This document shows positions 9,129 to 48,449 of a stretch of 64,000 bases of DNA, in pieces (position 1 is the stretch's first letter; every line of letters starts with the position of its first letter). The notes under the pieces are model-generated. The model did no database searches, had not been told where the DNA came from, and worked only from the letters and a program-made list of their open reading frames with translations. Position numbers and translations under genes: made by a program. The stretch comes from Fimbriimonadales bacterium (GTDB taxonomy: Bacteria; Armatimonadota; Fimbriimonadia; Fimbriimonadales; ATM1): positions 21,326 through 85,325 of the forward strand of contig JBPCLO010000027.1 in the NCBI GenBank assembly GCA_051003155.1. The letters run 5' to 3'.

Positions 9129-12052
9129 GTGCCGAGGCGAGGTGGTGTCACGATCCTGCGCGTGCTGCCGGGGTTTGCTGCGGTCAGAGAGGCAGCCGCG
9201 CGGTTCGCTCACGCTAAAGGCACGTTCTTCACGTCGAGCAACGCTTCGACTATCGCTCAGCTTCGGGACCACATCGAGGCTAACGATAACCTGCGCAAGC
9301 ACTATGAAACGGGCTGCATTCGTATCGACCTGCTAGGATCGCTAGTCCGCATATTCGCCGACTGCGCGAACCTACCCCTGGCCGCGCCAGCGGCATCGGA
9401 CTACCAGGAGGGTCTCGCCGGACTCGCGGCGGAGAAAATGTCTAACGACAGCCCATTCTTCGAGTGCCGCGAACTGCCCGGCTTCCACGCTGCCCTTGTC
9501 GACACCTTGCAAGAGCTTCGCAAGCATGACATCGATCTCTCTCGTGCGGTTTCGCCACCTCGCAAACTCGCAGACATTCGCGACCTTGCGGAGAGTTTTG
9601 AGGACGCCCTTGCCACCCACCGGCTCACGACGCTCAGCCATCGACTCAAACGGCTGCTCGACGCGTCGCCCAGCGCCCCACAGGAGTTGAAGGTCGTGGT
9701 CTGGCTCTCCGAAACCGAGTGGCCGCCCCTGTGGCTGCAGTTCGGTGACTGGCTTCGCCTGGCAGGCGTCGAGCTTGTGTTCTTCACCGAGCGACATTTG
9801 ACCGACGCTTCGTTTTTCCTTGGCGCAACACAGCTTGCCGCTGCCTGCCCCGACGCGAGAATCGAGAATGTCCAATGCCCAGCGACGGCGTGCGCCTCGC
9901 TGTTTTCCGGCGGTGGCGCACCCGCGCGGTCGAGCGATGGCGTCACAGTTCTCGAAGCTGCCGACGAGCATCTCGAAACCGAGTGGGCCCTACGAACAGT
10001 TCATTCCCACCTACTGCGAGGAGAGGCCGAGGGGAGAGTTTGCATTTTCTCGCGACATCTAGAGAAGTACGGGCCGCTGCTTGAAGCCGCTTCGTTTCGA
10101 TTCGGCGTACCGCTGAAAATGTCCCGCAATGAGCCGCTGCTAGCCAACCCGTTCGCGTCGTACTGCCTCGCCACTCTTAAGGCGTTGGCGAGTGGATCGA
10201 TCCAGGATTTGGCCTCGGCCATCAGTTCGCCCTATGCCGATATCGATCGTGCCCATTGGAAACTGGCCCGGGAGCAGATCTCCTCATGCGAGCGCACCCA
10301 AGGCGATCCGTGGACCGAATTAGGGCGGCTGGCACGCGATCCGAACCGCGTCGTTCCGACCTGGCTTGACTTCTGCGTCTCATGGCGAGACGAAGCGATC
10401 CGCGCCGCAAGGACGCTAGCGGACTGGATCCGTCGGTTCAATTTACTGATGGCGGGTACTCCATGGCTCGACGCTTGCTCGGGCGGCGGGCTCGTTGCGA
10501 AACGGGACGCATCGGCGCAGCATGCGATGGTAAGGTCGCTTCTGGTCAGCCAGCTCTTGGGCGACTCGACGCGCAATCTTGCACTCGGCGAATTCGTCGC
10601 GCATTGCGAAAAGCGATGGCAAGGCAACTCGTATACCATCCGCAGCCAAACGGGCGTCCGCGTTTCGACTACTCCTGCAGGGATAGGCGATGCGAACATC
10701 GTGATCGCCCTCGGAATGCTCGAAGGCAGGTTTCCCTCCCGGCGAGCCGAAGATCCGATTCTCCTCGACCGGGACCGGGAGTGGTTGAGGCAGGCGAGGA
10801 TGGATTGGCGCCTTCCGTCCAGCTACGAAAAGGCCGAAGAAGCCCGGCGCGAGTTCTACCGTGTGGCATGCGCGGCCCCGCAGATCGTGTTTTCGTACCC
10901 GCTAAACTTCGGCGAAACACCCGAAATCCGCACCTCGTATCTGGACGACTTGGAAGCCGACGGAATCATGCCCTCGTACACGGCCAAGCGATACGAAGAT
11001 CGATTCCCGAAACCGCATGCATCGCTCGTCATGGCAGACCTATTAGGCGCGCAAGCTTGGCACGATGACAAAACGTTCGATCCCGGCGAGCTCGTCGCCA
11101 ACAGACAGGACCAATTGCGGCAGGCGGCCTGTTCGGCGAAAGACGCCCTCATAGCCAATCCAGAAATCAAGCGCGAATTATCCGCCCTGCCGCGGCCTTT
11201 GCGACTGGCGCATCTCCGATCGCTGCGGCAGTGCCCGTTTCAATACGTCGCTCGGGCGAAACTGAATCTCCACAGCGCCCGCCCGCGCTGGGCTTGGGAC
11301 TGCGTGGCCAACGCGGTTCGCAAAGCGGATCTTAACGCCGATTCAGCCGACGCTCTGATGTCCAACCTGATGGCAACACTCGAATCCGAGCTTTGGTATT
11401 GGCGAGGCAAAGCGCCGCAGCATGAGCTTGAACTCGTGCGGGTCGCCGCGCCGAAAGCGCTCCGCGCGTTCGCTAACCGAGAGATAGCTATGCGGCAAAA
11501 GTGGGGTCTTCGTATCAAGGGCCAGAACGTCTCATTGGGCGAAGCCTGCCTGCGAAGCACAGTGCCGTTAGGTGAGTACAGCCTCAATTTTCTGAACGAA
11601 TCGACGTCCTGTATGAACGTGAAGGAACGTCCGACGTCGCGCAGCTCCGGATGGGTCGAACGCGACTGTCCGGACCGGCAGGGGATCCGGAGTTCGACCT
11701 GGAGACGAGCATCATAACTTTCTTAGGCAAAGGTCAGGTGGAGAGGCTTTCGATCGTTGACAGCTTGGAGTCCGGGCAACGCCTGGTCTCCCCCCGCAGA
11801 GTATTCGGTGGCATCTCCGCGTTAAAGAACAGCGCGTCCGAATGCCTTTTCGTCGACTCGTCGAGCGATCCCTTGGCTGCATTGAAGATCGATTTTGTCG
11901 AGCAGCTCAAGGGCCTGGTCGCGATCGCGAGCCGCGGCGACCTAACGGCGACTCCCGGGGTCTATTGCCGAACGTGTGATTACCCGGCCCTTTGCAGGCA
12001 GGCGCAAAGCAGTGAGGTCGGCTCCGCGCAGGGGGGTTTCGACGAGGAATGA
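9129..12052 (+). pseudogene. AddB/RecB-family helicase-nuclease subunit (PD-(D/E)XK nuclease with Fe-S Cys motif), split by a frameshift near 11588-11591
   Basis: There are two same-strand ORFs: 9129-11717, and an open frame 11576-12052. The nuclease-domain Cys ligands are split between the two frames: CPFQY (Cys codon 11232-11234) and CRTCDYPALC (11966-11995). The frame switch falls at a T-run. The 3' end has an ATGA overlap with the UvrD-like helicase gene. Confidence 0.7.
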
Positions 12053-37915: not shown

Positions 37916-38790
37916 GCCCGGTGATCGCCCTCCTCGCCGCGATGCGCCCACGCCAGTGGACCAAGAACCTCCTCGTCTTCGCAGGGCTAGTCTTCGCTGG
38001 CAGGTTCGTCGACCCCGATGCGATATGGCTTGTCGCCGCCCTGTTTGCCGCCTTCTGTTTGGTATCGAGCGCCGGCTACCTGCTGAACGACATCATCGAC
38101 CGCGCGGGAGACGTCAACCACCCCGAAAAGCGACTGCGGCCGATAGCTTCCGGGAAGGTCTCCACACAGACAGCCGCGTGCGCCTCGGCTGTTCTTCTCG
38201 TCGCCGGCTTCGCCATTCCCCTGGTGATGGGCATTCCCTGCGGTGTCCAACTGCTAACCGTTTACGCAGCGAATCAGGTCTTCTACATGAGCGCCGCTCG
38301 CCGTGTCGCCATTCTGGATGTATTCGTTATTTCGATCGGGTTCCTCGTAAGAGCCGTCGCAGGCGCTGCGGCTCTTAGAGTGTTCATCAGTCCATGGCTC
38401 CTAGTATGTACGTTCCTACTGGCGCTGTTCCTCGGCTTCGCAAAACGGAAACACGAGTACCACCTCGTCGCAAACGCGCGCGCCTCGCTCTCGGGTTATA
38501 CGAGCCAGCTGCTCGACCAGTTCATCATGATCTCCGCCGCGGCTTCGGCTCTCTCATACAGCGTATACGCAATCGAATCGCACACTGCAATTTCCCACCC
38601 GATGCTCGTCCTCACGATTCCCTTTCCGATCTTTGGCATATTCCGTTACCTGCAGTTGGTTTATAAGGATAACGGAGGCGGCAACCCCGACCAGGCGCTG
38701 GTTAAAGACCCGTGGATGTACGGAACGATTTTGCTCTGGGCAGTTCTAAGCTTATACGCCGTTTCGGCGGAAGGATGGGTGTCGCCTTAG
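37912..38790 (+). CDS. UbiA-family decaprenyl-phosphate phosphoribosyltransferase-like enzyme
   Basis: MRPRQWTKNLLVFAGLVFAG and YLLNDIIDRAGDVNHPEKRLRPIASG match the DPPR-synthase (Rv3806c-type) signature. ATG 37912 overlaps the yqeG stop (ATGA), with GGAAAGGA upstream. Confidence 0.8.
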   Translation: MSPVIALLAAMRPRQWTKNLLVFAGLVFAGRFVDPDAIWLVAALFAAFCLVSSAGYLLNDIIDRAGDVNHPEKRLRPIASGKVSTQTAACASAVLLVAGFAIPLVMGIPCGVQLLTVYAANQVFYMSAARRVAILDVFVISIGFLVRAVAGAAALRVFISPWLLVCTFLLALFLGFAKRKHEYHLVANARASLSGYTSQLLDQFIMISAAASALSYSVYAIESHTAISHPMLVLTIPFPIFGIFRYLQLVYKDNGGGNPDQALVKDPWMYGTILLWAVLSLYAVSAEGWVSP

Positions 38791-38831
38791 GTTTCCAAGC
38801 AACTGTGAAAAGGATCAGCGAGCGTCGTGGA

Positions 38832-39281
38832 ATGCGACAGTTCGCGAAGTTCGTCATCGTCGGCCTTAGCAGCACGATCATCGACTTTGGGCTCCACTTC
38901 CTGCTTTTCAAGGTGATCGACGGTGGACTCAACGATGCGATCCGAACCTTCGTCTACGGCATCATTCCGGCGCTTCAAGACTCGAAAGTCGACCCGGCAT
39001 TCGTTGTCATCAAGGGCATTTCGTTCATCACGGCGACGCTCAACGGATTCCACTGGAACCGCCATTGGTCATTCAAGGCGGCCGACAAGGACCTTGCCCA
39101 TCGCCAGCTCTTGCGCTTTTACATCGTCTACGCGATCGGGCTGTTGATCAACACAACCGTCGCGGGCTCACTCTATGCTCGTGGCGCGGTTTACATCCTC
39201 GCACTCCCGATCGCCACAGTCATCACCACCGCTTGGACCTTCCCAATGACCAAGTTCTGGACCTTCCAGCGCCGGCAATGA
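38832..39281 (+). CDS. GtrA family membrane protein
   Basis: MRQFAKFVIVGLSSTIIDFGLHFLLF and a C-terminal WTFPMTKFWTF are present, with four TM segments. Alternative in-frame starts are 38805 (GTG) and 38775. Confidence 0.8.
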   Translation: MRQFAKFVIVGLSSTIIDFGLHFLLFKVIDGGLNDAIRTFVYGIIPALQDSKVDPAFVVIKGISFITATLNGFHWNRHWSFKAADKDLAHRQLLRFYIVYAIGLLINTTVAGSLYARGAVYILALPIATVITTAWTFPMTKFWTFQRRQ

Positions 39282-40057
39282 GCCTCGTGTCGCTTGCGGT
39301 TCTGGGCGATCCGGTCGAGCACTCGCTTTCGCCTCGCATGCAAAACGCCGCCCTTCGTGCGTTGGGGATCGAGGGCGAGTACGTCGCTGTGCGCGCTCCG
39401 GCGGACGAGTTTGCGGAATGCGTGGCGCACCTTCGGGACCGCGGGTTCGTCGGCGCGAACGTGACGATCCCGCATAAGGAGCGGGCGGCCGGGATCGGCA
39501 CCGCGGACGACGAAATTGTGTCTGCGACGGGGGCGGCCAATACACTGAAGTTCCTCTCTCCGGTCCTTTGCCGAAACACCGACGTTCCCGGCTTCCTGCG
39601 GCCAATCCAGAGTCTCGCTCCTGGCGCGGCGCTCGTTCTGGGCGGCGGAGGTGCGGCCGCCGCGGCGGTCTACGCGCTAGTCCTCGCGGGCTGGGGAGTT
39701 CGCGTCTGGAATCGCAACCCCAAGAACTCGATCCGTTTGACCCAGAGGTTCGGCTGTTCATTTGCGAGCGACCCCGATCCCTCGTCTTGCAGTCTAGTCG
39801 TCAACGCAACGCCTCTCGGCCTGCGCGAGGGAGAAATGCCCGAACTAGGCTGGGAGTCCGCGGCCGCCGAATCCGTCATCTACGACCTCGCGTATCGAGA
39901 CGGCCCTACGGACTTGCTGGAGCATGCCCGTTCTTTGGGTCATCGAGCGATCGACGGCCGAGAGATGCTCGTCGAGCAGGGCGCGCTCTCGTTGGAATGG
40001 TGGACGGGGCAGAACGTCCCACGGCAAGTCATGCGCGAGGCCGTCGGCCTAACATGA
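39278..40057 (+). CDS. aroE: Shikimate dehydrogenase
   Basis: LAVLGDPVEHSLSPRMQNAALRALG, NVTIPHK, NTD and GGGGAAAA (Rossmann) are present. ATG 39278 has an ATGA overlap with the gtrA stop. The track start at 39065 is an upstream extension through gtrA. Confidence 0.9.
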   Translation: MSLVSLAVLGDPVEHSLSPRMQNAALRALGIEGEYVAVRAPADEFAECVAHLRDRGFVGANVTIPHKERAAGIGTADDEIVSATGAANTLKFLSPVLCRNTDVPGFLRPIQSLAPGAALVLGGGGAAAAAVYALVLAGWGVRVWNRNPKNSIRLTQRFGCSFASDPDPSSCSLVVNATPLGLREGEMPELGWESAAAESVIYDLAYRDGPTDLLEHARSLGHRAIDGREMLVEQGALSLEWWTGQNVPRQVMREAVGLT

Positions 40058-40677
40058 TCTGGTTTCGACCGGCAGGAGCGGACGATCCTCGCTTGGCCGA
40101 GGTGGCGGCGGCGGTCTTGGGTGGCGAGATCGCCATCGTTCCGACCGAAACGGTTTATGGCCTGGCATGCCTCGCCGACGATCCGAGAGCAATCACGAAG
40201 GTATTCAAGGCAAAGGGGCGCACGCCCGACAAGCCGCTGATCGTGGCAGCGACCGAAATCGCACAAGCCCGCATGCTTTGTTCGGACTGGCCGGAAATCG
40301 CGGAGAAACTGGCGACGGCGTTCTGGCCCGGGCCGCTGACCATCGTGCTGCCAAAGGCGATCGCCGTTCCCGACCTTGTGACGGCCGGGGGAAATACGGT
40401 CGCCGTACGCATTCCTAACCAGACGGTCCTCTTACGCCTGATCGATTTGGTCGGCAGACCGCTTACCGCCACGAGCGCCAATCAAAGCTCTCAGCCGTCG
40501 CCGCTCAGCGCCGAAGAAGCCGTGCGACAACTCGGCCCCACCTGTGCTTACGTCGTGGACTGTGGTCCTACGAGTGTCGGAAAGGAATCTACGATCGTGC
40601 AGATCGCCGGCAATACAGTGGCGATTCTGCGAGAAGGCGCGATCCCGCTTTGCGAGATCGAGTTAGCGGCAATGTGA
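40054..40677 (+). CDS. tsaC: L-threonylcarbamoyladenylate synthase (YrdC/TsaC type)
   Basis: GGEIAIVPTETVYGLACLADDPRAITKVFKAKGRTPDKPLIV and LTATSAN are present. ATG 40054 has an ATGA overlap with the aroE stop. Confidence 0.88.
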   Translation: MIWFRPAGADDPRLAEVAAAVLGGEIAIVPTETVYGLACLADDPRAITKVFKAKGRTPDKPLIVAATEIAQARMLCSDWPEIAEKLATAFWPGPLTIVLPKAIAVPDLVTAGGNTVAVRIPNQTVLLRLIDLVGRPLTATSANQSSQPSPLSAEEAVRQLGPTCAYVVDCGPTSVGKESTIVQIAGNTVAILREGAIPLCEIELAAM

Positions 40678-41148
40678 GCAGAGGCCGATAACTTCGACCC
40701 TGGTCTGCCTCGCCATAAAGCCGAGCCGCGAGCCCGAAACGCCGATCTCGCTCAAAGCCGTCTGCGGCACGGGAATCTCCTCTACGCAGCCGCACGATTC
40801 ACAAACGAGGTGCTCGGTCTGGTGATCTCCGGAATGGTTCCCGGAACATGCCAGATAGCCGTCGACGATGCCGATCCGATGCGCCAAACCGGCTTCCACT
40901 AGGCTCGCCAGGATTCGGTAAACGCTAACGACGTCGATCTTGCCCCCGGTGGCAGCGACCTGATCTCGAATCTCATAAGCGCCCATCGGCTTCCTGGTTT
41001 CCGCCATAGCGCGCACAACCGCACGCCGGGGCCCGGTGACGCGCATGCCCTGCGATTGCAAACGCTCGATCGCCTTGCTCTCGTACTGCTCCGCCAGAGG
41101 CGGCTCGACGATATTACATTGGATGTCGGTCTGCGATGCCATAGGCAA
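40663..41148 (-). CDS. Fur family transcriptional regulator
   Basis: It has a winged-helix region (RVTGPRRAVVRAMAE...VYRILASLVEAGL), a metal site (HLVCESCGCVEEI) and a C-terminal CSHC. Confidence 0.88.
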   Translation of the reverse strand: MPMASQTDIQCNIVEPPLAEQYESKAIERLQSQGMRVTGPRRAVVRAMAETRKPMGAYEIRDQVAATGGKIDVVSVYRILASLVEAGLAHRIGIVDGYLACSGNHSGDHQTEHLVCESCGCVEEIPVPQTALSEIGVSGSRLGFMARQTRVEVIGLCSHCR

Positions 41149-41284
41149 TTATGGCTCGCGTCTTGCGGTCGATTCAGCGAAGTCGCGAAATGGTCCAGCG
41201 AGCTTGCGCACCGGTCCAGCCACGCTGCGGAAAGCATGGTTATTCATAAATCGTACCGGATACGTGTAATATCAGACTGTGGAC

Positions 41285-42610
41285 ATGCGCAAACTTCTCC
41301 TCTTCTTACCGACACTCATTGCCGCGGGCTGCTTCGGCGGCGGGAAAGAGACCGCAGCCCCTACGGGTACCGGAAAGGTCGAAGGCAGTCTCGAGATCGC
41401 CGCCTTCCAAGGCGGCTACGGAATCGATTTCTATCAGGCCGCCGCCAAAGAGTTCGAGTCGAAACATCCGGGGCTGAAGATCAAGGTCGAGGGCAACCCG
41501 CGCATATGGGAGCAGCTGCGCCCGAGGTTCATCGGAGGCAATCCGCCCGACCTGTGCTACCCCGGATGGGGCATGGACCACTGGGCGCTCGCAGAAGAGG
41601 GTCAACTCATGGCCTTCGACGAAGCCCTGGCCGCCAAGCCATACGGAGGCGATGGCACTTGGGGCGAAACATTCGAACCCTCCATCCTGGCACTTGGAAA
41701 ACTCGAGGGCAAACAGTACGTCCTTCCACACTTCTTTAACCTGCTTGGCTGGTGGTACGACCCGGGCATCTTCACCAAGAACGGTTGGACCCCTCCGAAG
41801 ACCTACGAAGAGCTACTGGCTCTCTGCGCGAAGATCAAGGCGCGCGGAATCGCTCCGATTACCTATCAGGGCAAGTACCCGTACTACATGGTAGAGGGAA
41901 TGCTCCTCCCGTGGGCGATGAGCGCCGGCGGAGCGGAGGCGGTACGCGCCGCACAGAACCTCGAGCCCAGCGCGTGGAAGTCGCGCGCGATGCTGAAAGC
42001 TGCCCAGATGATCGCCGAACTTAGGGACAAAGGGTTTTTCCAATCCGGCGCCACCGCCATGAGCCACACCGAATCACAGCAAGAGTTCGTCCAGGGCAAG
42101 GCTGCGATGATCCCTTGCGGGACGTGGCTCCACTCGGAGATGAGGAGCGTAATGCCTGCCGGAGCGAAAATGGAATTCATGCTGCCGCCGGTCTTGTCAC
42201 AGGGCAACGGCGAACCGACGAACGTTATCATCGGCATCGAGCCATGGATGGTGCCGAGCGATGCTAAGAACCCCGATGCTGCAGTCGCATTCCTTAAGTA
42301 CATGACCTCGCCGGAAAAGGCGAAGCAGTTTGTAGAGGAGAAGGGCACGCTGGTAGCGATCAAGGGAAGCGACCGAGCGCAGCTCCCTGAGGTCTTGGTC
42401 AAGCCTGCGGCCATATTCAAGAGCAGTAACTTCGTTTGGGCAGTCCAATATCGCCAGTGGTATCCGGCGTTCGACACGGAGATCCAAAACGCTCTGACGG
42501 CCATGCTGAACGGCGAACTGACTCCGGAGGCATTCTGTGGCCGAGTCGAGGCGGCCGCGGAGAAAACTCGCAAAGACCCAAACATCGCCAAGCATAAAGT
42601 CGCCGGCTAA
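41285..42610 (+). CDS. Carbohydrate ABC transporter substrate-binding lipoprotein (family 1 SBP)
   Basis: It has a lipobox (LIAAGC) and family-1 SBP features (GNPPDL, WWYDPGIF). Two sugar permease genes follow. The track start at 41279 is a GTG two codons upstream. Confidence 0.88.
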   Translation: MRKLLLFLPTLIAAGCFGGGKETAAPTGTGKVEGSLEIAAFQGGYGIDFYQAAAKEFESKHPGLKIKVEGNPRIWEQLRPRFIGGNPPDLCYPGWGMDHWALAEEGQLMAFDEALAAKPYGGDGTWGETFEPSILALGKLEGKQYVLPHFFNLLGWWYDPGIFTKNGWTPPKTYEELLALCAKIKARGIAPITYQGKYPYYMVEGMLLPWAMSAGGAEAVRAAQNLEPSAWKSRAMLKAAQMIAELRDKGFFQSGATAMSHTESQQEFVQGKAAMIPCGTWLHSEMRSVMPAGAKMEFMLPPVLSQGNGEPTNVIIGIEPWMVPSDAKNPDAAVAFLKYMTSPEKAKQFVEEKGTLVAIKGSDRAQLPEVLVKPAAIFKSSNFVWAVQYRQWYPAFDTEIQNALTAMLNGELTPEAFCGRVEAAAEKTRKDPNIAKHKVAG

Positions 42611-42640
42611 GAAACGTGGACATTCAAAGACGCATCGGAG

Positions 42641-42892
42641 TTGTCGCGCGCGCATCATTGGCGCTGTGCTAAAACCGGGCCGGAATATCCGCACGAATAC
42701 ACGCTGCGCAAGCAGTGGCAGAACCAGGAGGATATCGACGGAGTGGCGATCTTCATTCGTGAGAACGGTTACGTTGTAAATTTCAGAGGCCGAGACTACA
42801 TCTGCTTCGATGTGGGCGGCTATATGCGCTGGATCAGGGGCAGTCCGGTAAACGAGACTATCCTTGTCAACCGCGCACTAAACCAACAATGA
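42641..42892 (+). CDS. Small (83 aa) protein of unknown function embedded in the sugar ABC operon
   Basis: The sequence looks protein-like: EYPHEYTLRKQW...FIRENGYVVNFRGRDYICFDVGGYMRWIRGSPVNETILVNRA. It starts with TTG, and its stop overlaps the ATG of the next permease gene (ATGA). Confidence 0.55.
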   Translation: MSRAHHWRCAKTGPEYPHEYTLRKQWQNQEDIDGVAIFIRENGYVVNFRGRDYICFDVGGYMRWIRGSPVNETILVNRALNQQ

Positions 42893-43776
42893 GGCGCGAC
42901 GGTCGAACGACGTTCATCATCACGTTCCTGGCCCCGGCTGTGGGTCTCTATGGCGTCTTTGTGGTTTGGCCACTCCTCCAATCGTTCGTTCTCTCGCTCT
43001 ATCGATGGCGCGGGGTTTCGGCGAAGAAGACTTACGTGGGCCTCGAAAACTTTCAAGCCCTAACCCGGGACGACGTCTTCTGGCAGGCTCTAAAGAATAA
43101 TTTGTGGCTGCTCGTCGTGGGCGGCCTGGCAGTGCTTGTTATCGGTGTCACAATCGCGCACGCGATGCAAGGCTCGGGCCGGATGGCTCGCGCCCTACGC
43201 GGCATCTACCTGTTCCCACAAGTGATCTCCCTCGTCGTCGTGGCGATCCTATGGATGTTCCTCTACAACCCATCCTTCGGCCTGATTACGAGCGGACTGA
43301 ACGCCATCGGCCTCGGCGACCTCGCTCGCCCGTGGCTTGGTGACTCCAAGACCGCCTTGCCCTCGGTCGGCATCGCTTTCCTGTGGTACGTGCTCGGCTT
43401 CTATATCATGCTGTTCGCCGCAGGAATCAAGTCGATCCGCTCGGAGATCCACGAGGCCGCAGCGCTCGACGGATCGGCCGGTTTGAGCAAGTTCTGGAAA
43501 GTAACCTGGCCGATGCTCTGGTCGGTCAAACGTGTAGCGGTCGTTTACATCGTGATCAACGTGATGAACGTCTTCGCGCTCGTCTATCTTATGACGCAAG
43601 GCGGCCCTGATCGCAAGACCGAGGTCATGCTCACATACCTCTACGAGCAGGCATTCAAGAACAACCTGTTCGGCTACGCAACGGCTCTTGCAGTGGGCGT
43701 TTTCGTCGTCTCGATGGCGTTCTGCCTTATCCTGATGTTCCTGTTCAGGAAGAATCCTGAGGAAGCGCGCGCTTGA
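42889..43776 (+). CDS. Carbohydrate ABC transporter permease (MalF/UgpA-like)
   Basis: It has six TM segments and the EAA loop HEAAALDGSAGLSKFWKVTWPML. Confidence 0.9.
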   Translation: MRRDGRTTFIITFLAPAVGLYGVFVVWPLLQSFVLSLYRWRGVSAKKTYVGLENFQALTRDDVFWQALKNNLWLLVVGGLAVLVIGVTIAHAMQGSGRMARALRGIYLFPQVISLVVVAILWMFLYNPSFGLITSGLNAIGLGDLARPWLGDSKTALPSVGIAFLWYVLGFYIMLFAAGIKSIRSEIHEAAALDGSAGLSKFWKVTWPMLWSVKRVAVVYIVINVMNVFALVYLMTQGGPDRKTEVMLTYLYEQAFKNNLFGYATALAVGVFVVSMAFCLILMFLFRKNPEEARA

Positions 43777-44591
43777 AGAGAGTGCTCGGCAACTTCGGCC
43801 TAGTCTTGTTCGGCCTGAGCGTCGTCGTGCCGCTCATGTGGGTGCTCCTGACCTCGCTGAAATCCGGCCCAGAGGTCTTCGCCTCGCCCTGGGGCCTCCC
43901 GAAAAGCCCGCAATGGCAGAACTATTCGAACGCCTGGCAGCAGGCCGGCGTCGGCAAATATTTCCTCAACAGCCTCCTCGTAACCCTTGGGACTCTCCTG
44001 ATCCTGCTCCCGATCGGTGCAATGGCGGCGTACGTGCTCGCCCGCTACCCGTTTCGGGGTTCGAAAACGATTTTCGGCACGTTCCTCGGTGGGATGATGT
44101 TTCCGAACTTTCTTATCGTCGTGCCACTGTTCTTCCTTCTCAAAAGCATGGGAATGCTCGATACAAAGACGGGGCTTATCCTGGTCTATGTCGCCTATTC
44201 GCTGTCCTTCACGATATTCGTACTGACGGGCTTCTTCCAATCCCTGCCGAACGAACTCGCCGAAGCGGCGATGATCGACGGGTGTACCCATTCGAGCACG
44301 TTTTGGCGGGTGATGTTACCACTTGCGAAGCCCGGACTCGTCGTCGTGGGAATCTTCAACGCGATCGGTCTGTGGAACGAGTACGGACTGGCGCTTGTCC
44401 TCGTCAACAGCGAAGAAAACCGCACGCTGCCTTTGGGAATCGCCAACCTAGTGATGACCCAGCATTACCAAAGTGACTGGGGCGCGCTGTTCGCGGGCCT
44501 AGTGATTGTGATGCTTCCGGTGCTTATGGTGTACTGGATTTACCGGGACAAGATCCATGAAACGATGCTTGCAGGAGCCGTAAAAGGGTAG
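43773..44591 (+). CDS. Carbohydrate ABC transporter permease (MalG/UgpE-like)
   Basis: The EAA loop AEAAMIDGCTHSSTFWRVMLPLAKPG is present. The start is a TTGA overlap with the upstream stop, or GTG 43782. Confidence 0.9.
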   Translation: MKRVLGNFGLVLFGLSVVVPLMWVLLTSLKSGPEVFASPWGLPKSPQWQNYSNAWQQAGVGKYFLNSLLVTLGTLLILLPIGAMAAYVLARYPFRGSKTIFGTFLGGMMFPNFLIVVPLFFLLKSMGMLDTKTGLILVYVAYSLSFTIFVLTGFFQSLPNELAEAAMIDGCTHSSTFWRVMLPLAKPGLVVVGIFNAIGLWNEYGLALVLVNSEENRTLPLGIANLVMTQHYQSDWGALFAGLVIVMLPVLMVYWIYRDKIHETMLAGAVKG

Positions 44592-44750
44592 AAAAAGTAC
44601 TCGGATGGAGCGGCATTTTGGCTACTTCGGTCGTCAACATAAACGATAATTGATTCGATTAGGTTCAAATAAACCTGAAAACCGGTTGAATCCGTGATAC
44701 AATTCATCTAGTTTGAACCTGAGTTCCCTTGGGGCTCTACGGAGGAAAGA

Positions 44751-44948
44751 ATGAAGTTCTATAACCTGAAGACACGAAGCCACGTCGAAGTGCCCGACTC
44801 CGACATGCAAAAGAAGAAGATGGTGCGCAAGACCAAGAACGGCACCCAGACGCGATACGCCCTTGTCGCAAACCACCAGGGCAGCAAGCTGTTCAAGTTC
44901 GTCAGCGAAGCCGACTACAAAGCCGCGAACTGCAAAGAAGTTTCCTAA
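44751..44948 (+). CDS. Small basic protein (65 aa), function unknown
   Basis: It has a strong GGAGGA Shine-Dalgarno 7 nt upstream, an AT-rich leader and a textbook terminator immediately downstream. The composition is Lys-rich. Confidence 0.7.
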   Translation: MKFYNLKTRSHVEVPDSDMQKKKMVRKTKNGTQTRYALVANHQGSKLFKFVSEADYKAANCKEVS

Positions 44949-44961
44949 CTTCGAAGATGTG

Positions 44962-44993
44962 AAGAGCGCTCCTCGCAGGGGCGCTCTTTTTTT
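44962..44993. terminator. Intrinsic terminator between convergent genes
   Basis: AAGAGCGCUCC-UCGCA-GGGGCGCUCUU is followed by UUUUU on the plus strand. On the minus strand the hairpin starts right after the TAA of the thioredoxin-like gene. Confidence 0.8.
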
Positions 44994-45414
44994 AGAGCTT
45001 GGCCCTGGCAGCGTCCATCTCGGCCGCGAACGCGTCGGCGGGCAGGTACCCGAGGATCTTGTGCACGACGTTGCCTTCAGAGTCCAGGAATAGGATCGCC
45101 GGAAAGCCGTCTATGGCGTGCTTCTTGACGAGTTCGGGGCCTTCGCCCTTCTCGCCGTCTATCTTGATCGGGACAAACTGTCCCGCTCGCCGGATCACGG
45201 AATCTTGGGTGTAGGTCTCCGCGTCCAGCTTCTTGCAGTATCCTCACCAATCGGTATAGAAGTCCGCCATCACGAGGGTCTTATCGGACGCGGCCTTCCC
45301 AAGCGCGGACTGGATGTCCCCGGTGTGCCACATGATGCCGGTGCCTGTTTCAGTTTCCTTCTGACAAGAGACGGCGACGAGCGCCAACAGCGGCAGAAGC
45401 CGGATGGGTTTCAT
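44992..45414 (-). CDS. Thioredoxin-fold (Thioredoxin_7-like) lipoprotein with in-frame UGA at the CXXC position; candidate selenoprotein (alternatively a nonsense allele)
   Basis: There is one continuous frame: MKPIRLLPLLALVAVSC...KTLVMADFYTDW-[TGA 45246-45244]-GYCKKLDAETYTQDSVIRRAGQFVPIKIDGEKGEGPELVKKHAIDGFPAILFLDSEGNVV. The track shows only the 68-aa 3' part (44992-45198). Confidence 0.6.
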
Positions 45415-45417
45415 GAC

Positions 45418-45804
45418 CTAATATATGTCGTGAAGGCCGAAGTTGTTCGCTTCGACGACTCCAAGCTCGTCTTCCTCGAAGTATCCGTCTAGGTCGCACG
45501 AGGCATGCCCGGCGGCCGCCATCGGTTCGGTCTCAGGACTCACTTCAACAGAACAGTCCACATTCTGCCGGCTGATGTGAAAAACCAACCAGGGGTTTTC
45601 GGGCATCTTCTTGGCTGCCCTTTGAGCGTCGGGGACCTGTAGCCACGACTTCCCCGGAGCTTTAAAGAAGACCTCGAACCCCTCCTGCGCTCGACCGGTG
45701 AGGACAAGCGCGTAGCCCCTTGAGGGCAAGTCTTCCGGAGGCAAGTCCACGGGCGGCGCTGTGCCAAAGCCAATTGTTGTCACGGCGATAACGCTAATAA
45801 GCAT
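45418..45804 (-). CDS. Hypothetical exported or membrane-anchored protein co-transcribed with the thioredoxin-like gene
   Basis: An AGGAGGA Shine-Dalgarno lies upstream of ATG 45804. The N-terminus is hydrophobic. The stop is 3 nt before the downstream ATG. Confidence 0.6.
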   Translation of the reverse strand: MLISVIAVTTIGFGTAPPVDLPPEDLPSRGYALVLTGRAQEGFEVFFKAPGKSWLQVPDAQRAAKKMPENPWLVFHISRQNVDCSVEVSPETEPMAAAGHASCDLDGYFEEDELGVVEANNFGLHDIY

Positions 45805-45927
45805 ACTTCCTGTCCTCCTACAGCGTCGATTATATCAGATAGGACGGGATGGTGCAAGTTTTTGTTACTAGTGGAGTGTGTCAAACTTGCAACGCACGAT
45901 TTTTGTCCACGGATAGGAGGAAGATAA

Positions 45928-46437
45928 ATGAAGTTGAAGATGGTCACTCTGGCGGCAGCCGCAGCGACATTTGCGGGAGCGGCGGCCCAGTCGGTAATTC
46001 CGACACCTCTCGGAATCATGATTCGGGCCGGGATTTTCAACCCCTCGAGCGGATCCGGCGGAGCGTTCGGCGAGAGCTGGTTCACGGCCGGGGTCGAGGT
46101 CGACATCCTGCGTCTCGGAATGGGCGGGCTGAATCCCATGCGCTCTAAGATCACCGTTTCGGTCGACACCTACAGTAAGAGTGGGGCCGCAAGCGTCCCG
46201 GTCCTCGTCAACTACGTTGGCTACATGCAGCGCATCAAGTACTCAGCCGGCATAGGGTTCAGCATCGCGGATCGTCCGGGCCATGACAGCTCGGCCAACT
46301 TCGCATACCAGGTATCGGCCGGCTATGACCTTCCTTGGGCGGGCCTGCCTTTGACTGCGGAGCTGCGCTACTTCGGTGTTCAAGGCGTCGGCACGGCCCT
46401 TGACGGTTTTGCGCTCACGCTCGGTTTCAGGCTGTAG
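45928..46437 (+). CDS. Small outer-membrane beta-barrel protein (OmpW/OmpA-beta-barrel-like)
   Basis: It has a GGAGGA Shine-Dalgarno, the signal peptide MKLKMVTLAAAAATFAGAAAQ, alternating beta-strand patterns and a C-terminal ...ALTLGFRL. Confidence 0.7.
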   Translation: MKLKMVTLAAAAATFAGAAAQSVIPTPLGIMIRAGIFNPSSGSGGAFGESWFTAGVEVDILRLGMGGLNPMRSKITVSVDTYSKSGAASVPVLVNYVGYMQRIKYSAGIGFSIADRPGHDSSANFAYQVSAGYDLPWAGLPLTAELRYFGVQGVGTALDGFALTLGFRL

Positions 46438-46529: not shown

Positions 46530-47128
46530 TTGTCGCGAGGCGACGCTAATCCGGGTGGGGACGAGAGCATCATTCAGCGGTGTCAGACCACGGCCCGGAC
46601 GCCTTCGGCTTGCTGATCGACCGATACGCCGCGCGGGTATTCGGCTTCGTTTCGCGCACGGTGCGGGACCGCGACGACGCCGAAGACATCGCGCAGGAGG
46701 TCTTCGTTCGAGCGTTTCAGAGCCCGGGAAGGTTCGATGACCGGGCCTCCTATCTAACCTGGCTCTTCAAGATCGCAACGAACTTAAGCGTCGACCGCGC
46801 GCGGAAGATGGGCCGAGGGCCGGCGTTTGTGTCCTTTGGGAATGACGCAGATTCTCATCGAGCATCCGCAATTTCCGATGTGCACGCGGACCCGGAGAGC
46901 CGGGCCATCGTCGGAGAGATGGAGTCGGCGATCAAGGCCGCTATTTCCGGTCTTTCAGACAAGCTGCGAACAACGCTCCTGTTGCATGACCTCGAACGAC
47001 AATCGTACGAGGAAATTGCCGAGATACGGGAAGTGCCGGTCGGTACAGTGTAATCTCGCCTCTTCCAGGCTAGGACGCGGCTTCAGGAAGCGATCGCAGA
47101 TTACATAAACGAGGAGGGAGGGAAATGA
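46530..47128 (+). pseudogene. ECF-type RNA polymerase sigma-70 factor with a premature in-frame TAA (47051) and a probable N-terminal frameshift (about 46586)
   Basis: The intact ORF is 46580-47053 (DAEDIAQEVFVRAF, YLTWLFKIATNLSVDRARK, QSYEEIAEIREVPVGTV). After the TAA the same frame continues SRLFQARTRLQEAI... to a TGA that overlaps the anti-sigma ATG. Confidence 0.75.
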
Positions 47129-47580
47129 TTCGTGAACTCCTGCGAAAGATCGAGAAAGGATTATCGCTGACTGAGGAAGAGGTGGCAATGGTCGAGAAAA
47201 TCATGGCCGAGGAGGAACAAGAAATCGACCTCAACAGTCTCCTGTCCGAGCAACACCCAGGCGAGATCTGGAGGCGCGAGCTCGACGCAAGAATCGACGA
47301 TATTACACGGAAGCGGCGACTTTGGGGGAGGCCGCAGGTTCGCTTGGCGCTCTCAGGGGCGTTGGCGGCAGCGGCCGTCGCCGCATTTGTTCTCATGGCC
47401 AGGGGCCGCTTCGAAGCCCCTGGGCCGGAGCAAATGCTTCAGTGGCACGAGGAGGCGGTGGCGTCCACGCTCCTTCCAGGTGACGGCGCCAACCTCGGCG
47501 CATTCTCGACGATGCCGTGCCAGCCCGTGCCGGGCGACAAGAACGACCCGCTCTGCGACGGATCGTTACTCTCGCTATGA
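47125..47580 (+). CDS. Putative anti-sigma factor (single-pass membrane protein)
   Basis: The call rests on its position directly after the ECF sigma gene, a central TM helix (LALSGALAAAAVAAFVL) and an ATGA overlap with the downstream RseB-like gene. It has no recognisable zinc-finger motif. Confidence 0.55.
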   Translation: MIRELLRKIEKGLSLTEEEVAMVEKIMAEEEQEIDLNSLLSEQHPGEIWRRELDARIDDITRKRRLWGRPQVRLALSGALAAAAVAAFVLMARGRFEAPGPEQMLQWHEEAVASTLLPGDGANLGAFSTMPCQPVPGDKNDPLCDGSLLSL

Positions 47581-48449
47581 GACCCCTCGCCGTACTGGTT
47601 GTCTCTTATGCGCTTGTAGGTGCGCTCGCCCAAGAAACCGATCCGCGGATTGTCGCGTCCCTCCAGCGCTCGCTCAAGGGGCAGGACGGCCTCAAATATA
47701 GCGGCGAGCGGCATGTAGAACTCGTTGTAGGTGGAGAGAGAAAGGTTCTCATCGAGTACGTTCTGCGCTCCGGCGCGCGCTCGAGAATTACCTACCCTAA
47801 CGACTCGCCGCGCCGTGGATTCGTCATCGTGGAAACGCCTCAGGGACGATGGGAATACGACCCTAAAAGGAACGAAATCCGCGTTTCGAGCCCCAAGCGG
47901 GGCGATTCGCTGCGAATCATGGGAGCACTCGTAAGATCAGCGCAAACCCGCAGGCTCAAAGTGTCTGCATTAGAGCAAGAAATGATCGCAGGCCGCAAAG
48001 CCAGCGGCTATGCTTTCTAAGACTCGAACGGTAACGTCGCTCGCAGGGTCTGGCTGGATGACGAAACGGGCCTCATTCTCAAGGCGGAGCACACGGGCAA
48101 GGTCGGCGAACGGCTCGCAGCTTTCGAGTACGTTCGCGTTAACTATAATCCCGCGATCGAAGCCGACGACTTCGCCCCGCTAACCCGCCAGGGCGCGAGG
48201 GTCGTCACTAATGAGCCACATTTCGATGTGCCGTGGACGGTCCTTGGGCCACAATGGCTCCCCGGCGGCTTCAAGGAAATTCGCCGAGGCATGAGGAAAT
48301 TCAAGGGCAAAGTAATTTTGATGTTGCATTACAGCGACGGCCGCCGGAACTTTACGATCTTCCAGGGCGAAGGCACGAAGACTCCTTCACTGCCCGAAAG
48401 AAATCGACGTGGCGTCTCCCTGCGCTCGAAATCGTATGACGACGTCTGA
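47577..48449 (+). pseudogene. MucB/RseB-like (LolA-fold) periplasmic protein interrupted by an in-frame TAA at 48018-48020
   Basis: The N-terminal ORF (47577-48020) and the 48228-48449 ORF are in the same frame. The stretch between them is open and protein-like (DSNGNVARRVWLDDETGLILKAEH...), matching the RseB pattern lw.D.etgllLk and W..lP.GF...h..YSDG. Confidence 0.7.

Follow-up and report, generated by a model that had tools for sequence, protein, structure and literature searches.

A conserved in-frame UGA, probably read as selenocysteine, at the attacking-cysteine position of a thioredoxin-fold gene from Armatimonadota, and the two-hairpin RNA element that follows it

Selenoproteins of the thioredoxin fold that carry selenocysteine (Sec, U) as the N-terminal redox residue of a UxxC motif, and that have homologues with Cys in its place, are well known as a kind, and another protein of this sort is in itself unsurprising to a specialist. 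Here we describe a gene on the minus strand of a 64,000-nucleotide stretch of DNA from a Fimbriimonadales bacterium of the phylum Armatimonadota (contig JBPCLO010000027.1; the whole 64-kb stretch is called the window), whose single in-frame UGA we consider, with a probability of about 85%, to be decoded as Sec in a genuine selenoprotein gene. Its product resembles the known UxxC proteins in having Thioredoxin_2 (PF13098) as its top domain, a presumed Sec as the N-terminal redox residue and Cys-containing homologues. The sole unusual feature of the gene is a conserved two-hairpin element after the UGA, with a loop of canonical type that lies far outside the accepted spacing.

The solved structures that best match the window protein by sequence are a Bacteroides ‘putative disulphide-isomerase’ (2kuc_A, E 4e-17) and the C-terminal (gamma) domain of DsbD (cDsbD, 6dnl, E 1.5e-10); the UGA-encoded residue 57 is matched to the leading Cys of WCGPC in the former and of WCISC in the latter. 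Both are periplasmic thiol:disulfide oxidoreductase domains, as the type to which the window protein belongs would also be. Unlike DsbD, the window protein is a stand-alone domain of 140 aa, without the membrane and alpha domains and with Sec, as we read it, for Cys; it scores 63 bits against the DsbD model NF001419, for which the cutoff is 330, and matches only profile positions 462-572, the gamma domain. Two described selenoprotein types, TsoB and Trx7/PDZ, share a domain of the DsbD-gamma/Thioredoxin_7 type and are instances of Sec use in this fold. The window protein is a member of neither, since TsoB has the motif UxxxxU in a rhodanese fusion and Trx7/PDZ has CxxU together with a PDZ domain, whereas the motif here is UxxC. 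The corresponding scores are 73.5 bits against a cutoff of 805 for TsoB (NF045694), with no rhodanese domain present, and 20.3 bits against a cutoff of 300 for Trx7/PDZ (NF041199), the latter with a long homologue only and with no PDZ domain. None of the curated NCBIfam models reaches its cutoff for the window protein family, which has a Thioredoxin_7/DsbD-gamma signature. In most of its other members an ordinary signal peptide is combined with a tetratricopeptide repeat (TPR) domain at the C terminus, whereas the window form is short and is predicted to be a lipoprotein.

The bacterial selenocysteine insertion sequence (SECIS) has been modelled as a hairpin with a 4-16 bp stem that carries an apical loop, 3-9 nt long, that has G at loop position 1 or 2, with 16-37 nt from the UGA to the loop and a minimum free energy (MFE) of <= -7.5 kcal/mol (PMC13188914). 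Some bacterial selenoprotein genes fail this canonical model (PMC13188914). In BSepDB, canonical elements are found in 87.4% of bacterial selenoprotein entries and 12.6% are without one, so that a non-canonical element is not unprecedented.

An initial annotation of the window had proposed that a continuous minus-strand frame is interrupted by one TGA. We re-derived this frame exactly: it runs from ATG 45414 to TAA 44994-44992, and the TGA at 45246-45244 is its sole interruption. The gene and its parts are as follows.

44992..45414, minus strand: the proposed selenoprotein gene, complete, of 140 codons followed by TAA, the in-frame UGA being codon 57; the architecture of the gene is shared by the orthologues in loci L003 and L054, introduced below.
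45235..45246, minus strand: redox motif U57-G-Y-C60, with the proposed Sec codon UGA at 45244-45246, placed by alignment with homologues and structures.
45364..45414, minus strand: predicted signal peptide and lipobox L-V-A-V-S-C17, with Cys17 as the predicted lipidation site, judged from the pattern in the translation.

The product of this frame reads MKPIRLLPLLALVAVSCQ...MADFYTDW*GYCKKLDAE...AARAKL*. With U written as C, the 140-aa product matched Pfam Thioredoxin_2 (PF13098) at 2.3e-16 (60.5 bits, gathering cutoff 27), Thioredoxin_7 (PF13899) at 5.5e-12 (46.1 bits, cutoff 27) and Thioredoxin (PF00085) at 3.8e-11 (43.3 bits, cutoff 23.5). The thioredoxin domain match takes in residues 30-134 and so covers either side of the UGA. 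Column 57 is the first Cys of WCGYC in the homologues, and of WCGPC, WCGHC and WCISC in the structures 2kuc, PDI-A4 and cDsbD. The Pfam match across the UGA and this alignment bear out the proposal that the in-frame UGA occupies the N-terminal (attacking) Cys position of a thioredoxin-fold W-C-x-x-C motif. When in-frame stops throughout the window were ranked in a codon-usage scan, the TGA at 45246-45244 came top among those with coding signal on both sides.

A lipobox follows the pattern [LVI][ASTVI][GAS]-C, and ...LALVAVS-C17 fits its looser PROSITE-type form. The S-C end of the signal peptide is kept in the orthologues, as LVAVSC in L003 and LAATSC in L054, which suggests that these two and the window form are lipoproteins, whereas in the long homologues with a TPR domain the signal peptides are of the ordinary sort and lack a lipobox Cys. 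Judged from its sequence, the product would be exported and would comprise a thiol:disulfide oxidoreductase domain on its own, of the DsbD-gamma/Thioredoxin_7 type.

In the Logan assembly of run SRR33880242, one contig of 7,675 bp is 100% identical to window positions 38700-46374, and gene calls on this contig break the thioredoxin gene into fragments of 56 and 68 aa. The TGA base call is therefore reproducible, and the splitting of the gene by open reading frame (ORF) callers, foreseen when the gene was first noticed, is real. Because ORF callers split the gene and no curated NCBIfam model covers the family, automated annotation probably misses its Sec forms, including those in the tandem Sec/Cys paralogues described below. 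We also considered that the gene might yield two peptides, the 56-aa peptide and a 68-aa peptide starting at GTG 45198; this was rejected, as the thioredoxin domain covers both halves and the catalytic residue is the one at the UGA column.

The protein databases returned homologues with <=45% identity, all with WCGYC. Since ORF databases cannot display Sec forms, we scanned at the DNA level and recovered 49 loci from reference genomes and 37 from metagenomes. Across the window and these 86 related loci, the UGA column was TGA in 22 copies (referred to here as Sec forms) and TGC or TGT in 87 (Cys forms), and it was never TAA or TAG. The closest relative, L003, is the Armatimonadetes metagenome-assembled genome (MAG) MGR_bin364, with a nucleotide identity of about 96%, or about 94% over 11 kb; it has TGA at the same codon and differs elsewhere in the gene by eight synonymous and eight non-synonymous changes. 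The next, L054, has 79% amino-acid identity and the same architecture of a short, predicted lipoprotein, and it too keeps the TGA (W*GFCKK). A Cys codon in close relatives had been named as an observation that would speak against Sec, and neither of these two has one. TGA was also found at the exact column in homologues that are only 33-48% identical:

L005, L009, L012, L016, L056, L071 and L076: distant TGA forms from Chthonomonadia/Chthonomonadaceae.
L014: a distant TGA form on a Phycisphaerales chromosome (Planctomycetota).
L044, L049, L050, L084 and L085: distant TGA forms from Calditrichota.

Every TGA form has a single TGA; the signal peptide starts 49-62 codons upstream of it, the frame downstream stays open for 83-293 codons, and no additional disruptive lesion was seen in any copy (22/22). 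The orthologue alignment thus has the pattern of a Sec/Cys pair, in which UGA aligns with Cys, is kept in orthologues and has intact flanks.

Tandem Trx-TPR paralogues occur in Chthonomonadaceae: L012 has Sec+Sec (at 9188 and 10097), L016 has Cys+Sec (9186 and 10088) and the contig L076 has Cys+Sec+Sec (6957, 7905 and 8777). The upstream paralogue is Sec in L012 and Cys in L016 and L076, and Sec and Cys have therefore been switched between related genomes. A Cys form in L045 (10001-10367, an Abditibacteriaceae MAG) has WCGYC, the motif nearest to that of the window, and seems to have suffered a frameshift or a truncation some 25 codons past the motif; it ends …KKLDRKPFRRARGPAVRRVRAH*, and the four stops in the extended frame point to a pseudogene or an assembly error.

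We then estimated dN/dS by the Nei-Gojobori method for the window gene against its orthologues in L054 and L003. In the comparison with L054, dS was 0.90, dN 0.123 and omega 0.136 over the whole gene, with an omega of 0.175 for the N-terminal part and 0.114 after the UGA, where dS was about 1.0. The part after the UGA is thus under purifying selection as protein, and read-through is therefore required; judged from this selection, the downstream peptide is translated. Synonymous change was distributed very unevenly within this part. In the 22 codons that follow the UGA there were two synonymous differences at 16 sites (dS 0.14), whereas further downstream there were 30.5 at 42.3 sites (dS >2; Fisher p = 7e-5). 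The near absence of synonymous change immediately after the UGA is the signature of an RNA element that overlaps the coding sequence.

Such an element was found. It consists of two hairpins, for which positions are counted from the U of UGA.

45189..45229, minus strand: hairpin H1, +18 to +58, with a 13-bp stem, one bulge and a large variable loop.
45169..45185, minus strand: hairpin H2, +62 to +78, with a stem of 6-7 bp, the loop A-G-U-U-U and an invariant G at 45178.

The outer 7-bp helix of H1 is kept in all Sec forms from Armatimonadota and Planctomycetota, where it is 91% paired and has compensatory changes at two pairs; the registers of the inner stems differ between sequences. In the same group H2 pairs completely (100%) in every Sec form; a compensatory GC<->AU exchange is seen in four of the sequences, and the loop of the group reads A-G-[U/G]-U-N. 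In a 10-sequence alignment 95.4% of the cells of both helices pair, compared with 15-48% in slid controls, and compensatory double changes occur at three pairs (seven cells); none of 500 shuffles reached either value. Folding of the 63-nt stretch that follows the codon, scored against shuffles, is more stable in Sec forms, with a mean z of -1.68 compared with -0.44 in Cys forms (Mann-Whitney p = 0.003). Across 77 unique sequences, H1 has a mean of 5.5/7 pairs in Sec forms and 3.0/7 in Cys forms (p = 1e-6), and H2 has 4.9/6 and 2.5/6 respectively (p = 8e-6), with a maximum of 4/6 in any Cys form. The codon for the Gln that supplies the loop G is CAG in 11/11 Sec forms and CAA in the four Cys forms that have Gln there.

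The strongest control for the specificity of the element is the comparison of paralogues within one genome. The Sec paralogues of L012, L016 and L076 have 6-7/7 pairs in H1 and 6/6 in H2, whereas the neighbouring Cys paralogues, which encode a nearly identical peptide, have 4-5/7 and 2-3/6. The UGA is conserved and under selection, and it is followed by a conserved RNA structure, H1 plus H2 with compensatory changes, that is specific to Sec forms and missing in Cys forms.

Three Cys forms from Chthonomonadales (L004, L007 and L055, motif WCVWC) have 6/7 pairs in the outer helix of H1 and 2-3/6 in H2. Their H1 helix may be left over from an earlier Sec state, or it may follow from conservation of the K-L-D...V-I-Q codons. 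That H1 is kept and H2 lost in these genes fits H2 as the helix that is tied to Sec.

How far does this element agree with the canonical SECIS? Like a canonical element, H2 has a stem of 6-7 bp, a loop of 3-5 nt of the form N1-G-[G/U]-N-N2 and an MFE of -7 to -10 kcal/mol, and it lies inside the coding region. In this family the element of the Calditrichota Sec forms is canonical in every respect: AGAC-[AGGUUA/AGGUCA]-GUCU, or one with a GGUC loop, at 21-22 nt. The Armatimonadota/Planctomycetota group has an H2 loop that matches the canonical one of these relatives, but differs in that this loop lies at 64-65 nt, roughly double the largest distance allowed, and an additional hairpin, H1, occupies the canonical interval. 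With H1 in its folded state, the H2 loop would be reached from the UGA over 14 + 3 + 6 = 23 nt, near the Calditrichota value, which suggests that H1 is a spacer and H2 the SelB-binding hairpin. It is tempting to go further and regard H2 with its folded spacer as a distinct, bipartite class of bacterial SECIS in the Armatimonadota/Planctomycetota branch, but we hold this only tentatively and think it rather less likely than otherwise. If it were true, it would explain why canonical SECIS searches miss such genes.

If the UGA at codon 57 is read as Sec, this would be achieved by Sec-tRNA(Sec) via SelB, with SelB recruited by RNA structure inside the coding sequence and within 80 nt after the UGA. 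In the periplasm, the selenolate of Sec57 would then attack disulfides in substrates or else other oxidised substrates, with Cys60 resolving the intermediate. By analogy with cDsbD-like domains, the periplasmic role is most likely reductive.

Several observations weigh against decoding as Sec. Exhaustive enumeration of hairpins in the window gene gave none that qualifies as a canonical SECIS at 16-37 nt. H1 is at the canonical distance but lacks a conserved loop G (present in 2/10 MFE folds), and H2 has every property of the canonical model but its spacing, as its loop is 64-65 nt from the UGA rather than 16-37 nt. Rfam returned neither a SECIS nor any other relevant family, whether the whole window was searched at the gathering threshold or positions 45120-45300 at E <= 10; the only matches were chance hits to snoRNAs. 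Conserved, covarying and Sec-specific hairpins are nonetheless present downstream of the UGA. The comparisons of Sec with Cys forms are partly confounded by phylogeny, a concern that the within-genome paralogues lessen. The window and L003 are too close a pair to prove ongoing selection in the source genome (eight synonymous and eight non-synonymous changes, omega 0.30). Finally, tblastn, ARAGORN and Rfam detected no selA, selB, selD or tRNA-Sec within the 64-kb window.

The search for Sec machinery was extended beyond the window. ARAGORN found no tRNA-Sec in the window and 49 loci, and a tblastn search of 1.09 Mb (the window and related loci) with SelA, SelB and SelD from E. coli gave a single match, to SelD in L050. 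This selD homologue (L050 4989-5972, minus strand in the locus; Calditrichaeota MAG CLD3) shares 38% identity with SelD of E. coli across 329 aa, and it lies 2.4 kb from a TGA-bearing Trx-TPR gene. Armatimonadota MAGs with Sec-type group 4 hydrogenases carry a canonical tRNA-Sec, and Sec decoding therefore exists in the phylum (PMC13582414). Beyond that study, the literature searched on Sec in Chthonomonas or Armatimonadetes held nothing specific. The present gene speaks for the use of Sec in a lineage of Armatimonadota, a phylum mentioned once in the selenoprotein literature searched. Among 14 Sec-form loci no partner gene is common across lineages (for example, no CcdA or DsbD), and only local synteny and tandem paralogues were seen.

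The same study raises the likeliest of the alternatives, namely that the UGA is recoded through the SECIS/SelB route by an allo-tRNA of the tRNA(ReC) type and is read as Cys, so that the product is an ordinary CxxC protein. tRNA(ReC)-like tRNAs occur beside canonical tRNA-Sec in 5/5 Armatimonadota genomes that have UXXU hydrogenases (PMC13582414), and the conserved UGA, the selection downstream of it and the RNA element would fit either amino acid. We nevertheless regard recoding as Cys as unlikely. The association of tRNA(ReC) is with UXXU motifs and not with single-U motifs (PMC13582414); TGA forms of the family are found also in Planctomycetota and Calditrichota, one of them beside selD; and nothing obvious is gained by encoding Cys as UGA in place of TGC, the codon already found in many paralogues. 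We therefore retain Sec as the probable residue at position 57.

That the TGA is an inherited nonsense mutation, and the gene a pseudogene since the common ancestor that has not yet gained further lesions, has to be weighed against the state of the surrounding DNA. The initial annotation had cautioned that other genes in the window carry nonsense and frameshift lesions, and this is so: an operon at 46580-48449 (plus strand), which encodes an extracytoplasmic function (ECF) sigma-70 factor, an anti-sigma factor and a MucB/RseB-like protein, is a decaying pseudogene cluster 1.3-3.2 kb from the thioredoxin gene. Its ECF sigma factor gene (46580-47108) has an in-frame TAA at 47052-47054, at the conserved Lys of region 4.2 (VGTV*SRL), and its MucB/RseB-like gene is interrupted in frame twice, by TAA at 48018-48020 and by TGA at 48447-48449. 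The same operon in L003 has suffered a frameshift, has acquired a TAG and has lost 1.5 kb (window positions 46938-48428), and CGG (Arg) aligns with the window TGA at 48447-48449. The proximity of real pseudogenes lends the nonsense reading some credit, as does the window-L003 pair, in which omega reaches only 0.30 on 16 substitutions. The operon also provides an internal contrast, since the true pseudogenes of this lineage have heterogeneous lesions that are not shared over the same divergence, whereas the TGA of the thioredoxin gene is shared. L054 keeps this TGA at a dS of about 0.9 and with an omega of 0.11 downstream; lineages that are 33-48% identical have TGA, and never TAA or TAG, in the same column, with up to 293 open codons after it; and neutrality explains neither the conservation of synonymous sites nor the covarying hairpins. 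An inherited nonsense mutation is therefore very improbable.

A sequencing or assembly error, by which TGC or TGT was miscalled as TGA, has in its favour little but prior probability and the low coverage of the L003 MAG (cov_0.98), and we give it almost no weight: the same TGA is present in the window, in the independent Logan assembly, in L003, which comes from a different study, in L054 and in about 20 other contigs. Nonsense mutation and base-call error had both been put forward as live alternatives when the gene was first noticed, and the conserved TGA, the omega of 0.11 and the independent assemblies effectively exclude them. A genome-wide reassignment of UGA to a sense codon such as Trp or Gly can be dismissed, given that many well-supported window genes end in TGA in a genome of 59% GC, that the aligned residue in homologues is always Cys, and that the TGA of the MucB-like pseudogene aligns with an Arg codon in L003, which leaves UGA with no consistent sense meaning.

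With Sec as the preferred reading of the codon, the family offers a natural comparison between a canonical SECIS, in Calditrichota, and a two-hairpin element, in Armatimonadota and Planctomycetota, that follow the same UGA. Since Cys paralogues from the same genomes are at hand as controls, the long-standing question of how strictly UGA and SECIS must be spaced in bacteria becomes directly testable.

The immediate surroundings of the gene on either side contain the following.

45418..45804, minus strand: an upstream ORF of 128 aa, with its TAG stop 3 nt before the ATG of the proposed selenoprotein gene; called in the Logan contig, no Pfam match.
44751-44948, plus strand: a flanking ORF of 65 aa; called in the Logan contig, no Pfam match.
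44964..44986, minus strand: an inverted repeat rich in GC, GAGCGC...GCGCTC, immediately 3' of the stop; kept with small changes in L003.

Because its stop lies only 3 nt before the ATG, the 128-aa ORF is probably co-transcribed with the proposed selenoprotein gene, at which a scan for transcription signals found no promoter. The inverted repeat may be a transcription terminator; it was not called in a terminator scan, and its T tract is weak. Further away, an 83-aa ORF at 42641-42892 (plus strand), with no Pfam match on record, is located between the substrate-binding gene and the first permease gene of a sugar ATP-binding cassette (ABC) system; it is called in the Logan contig and overlaps the start of the permease gene by 4 nt.

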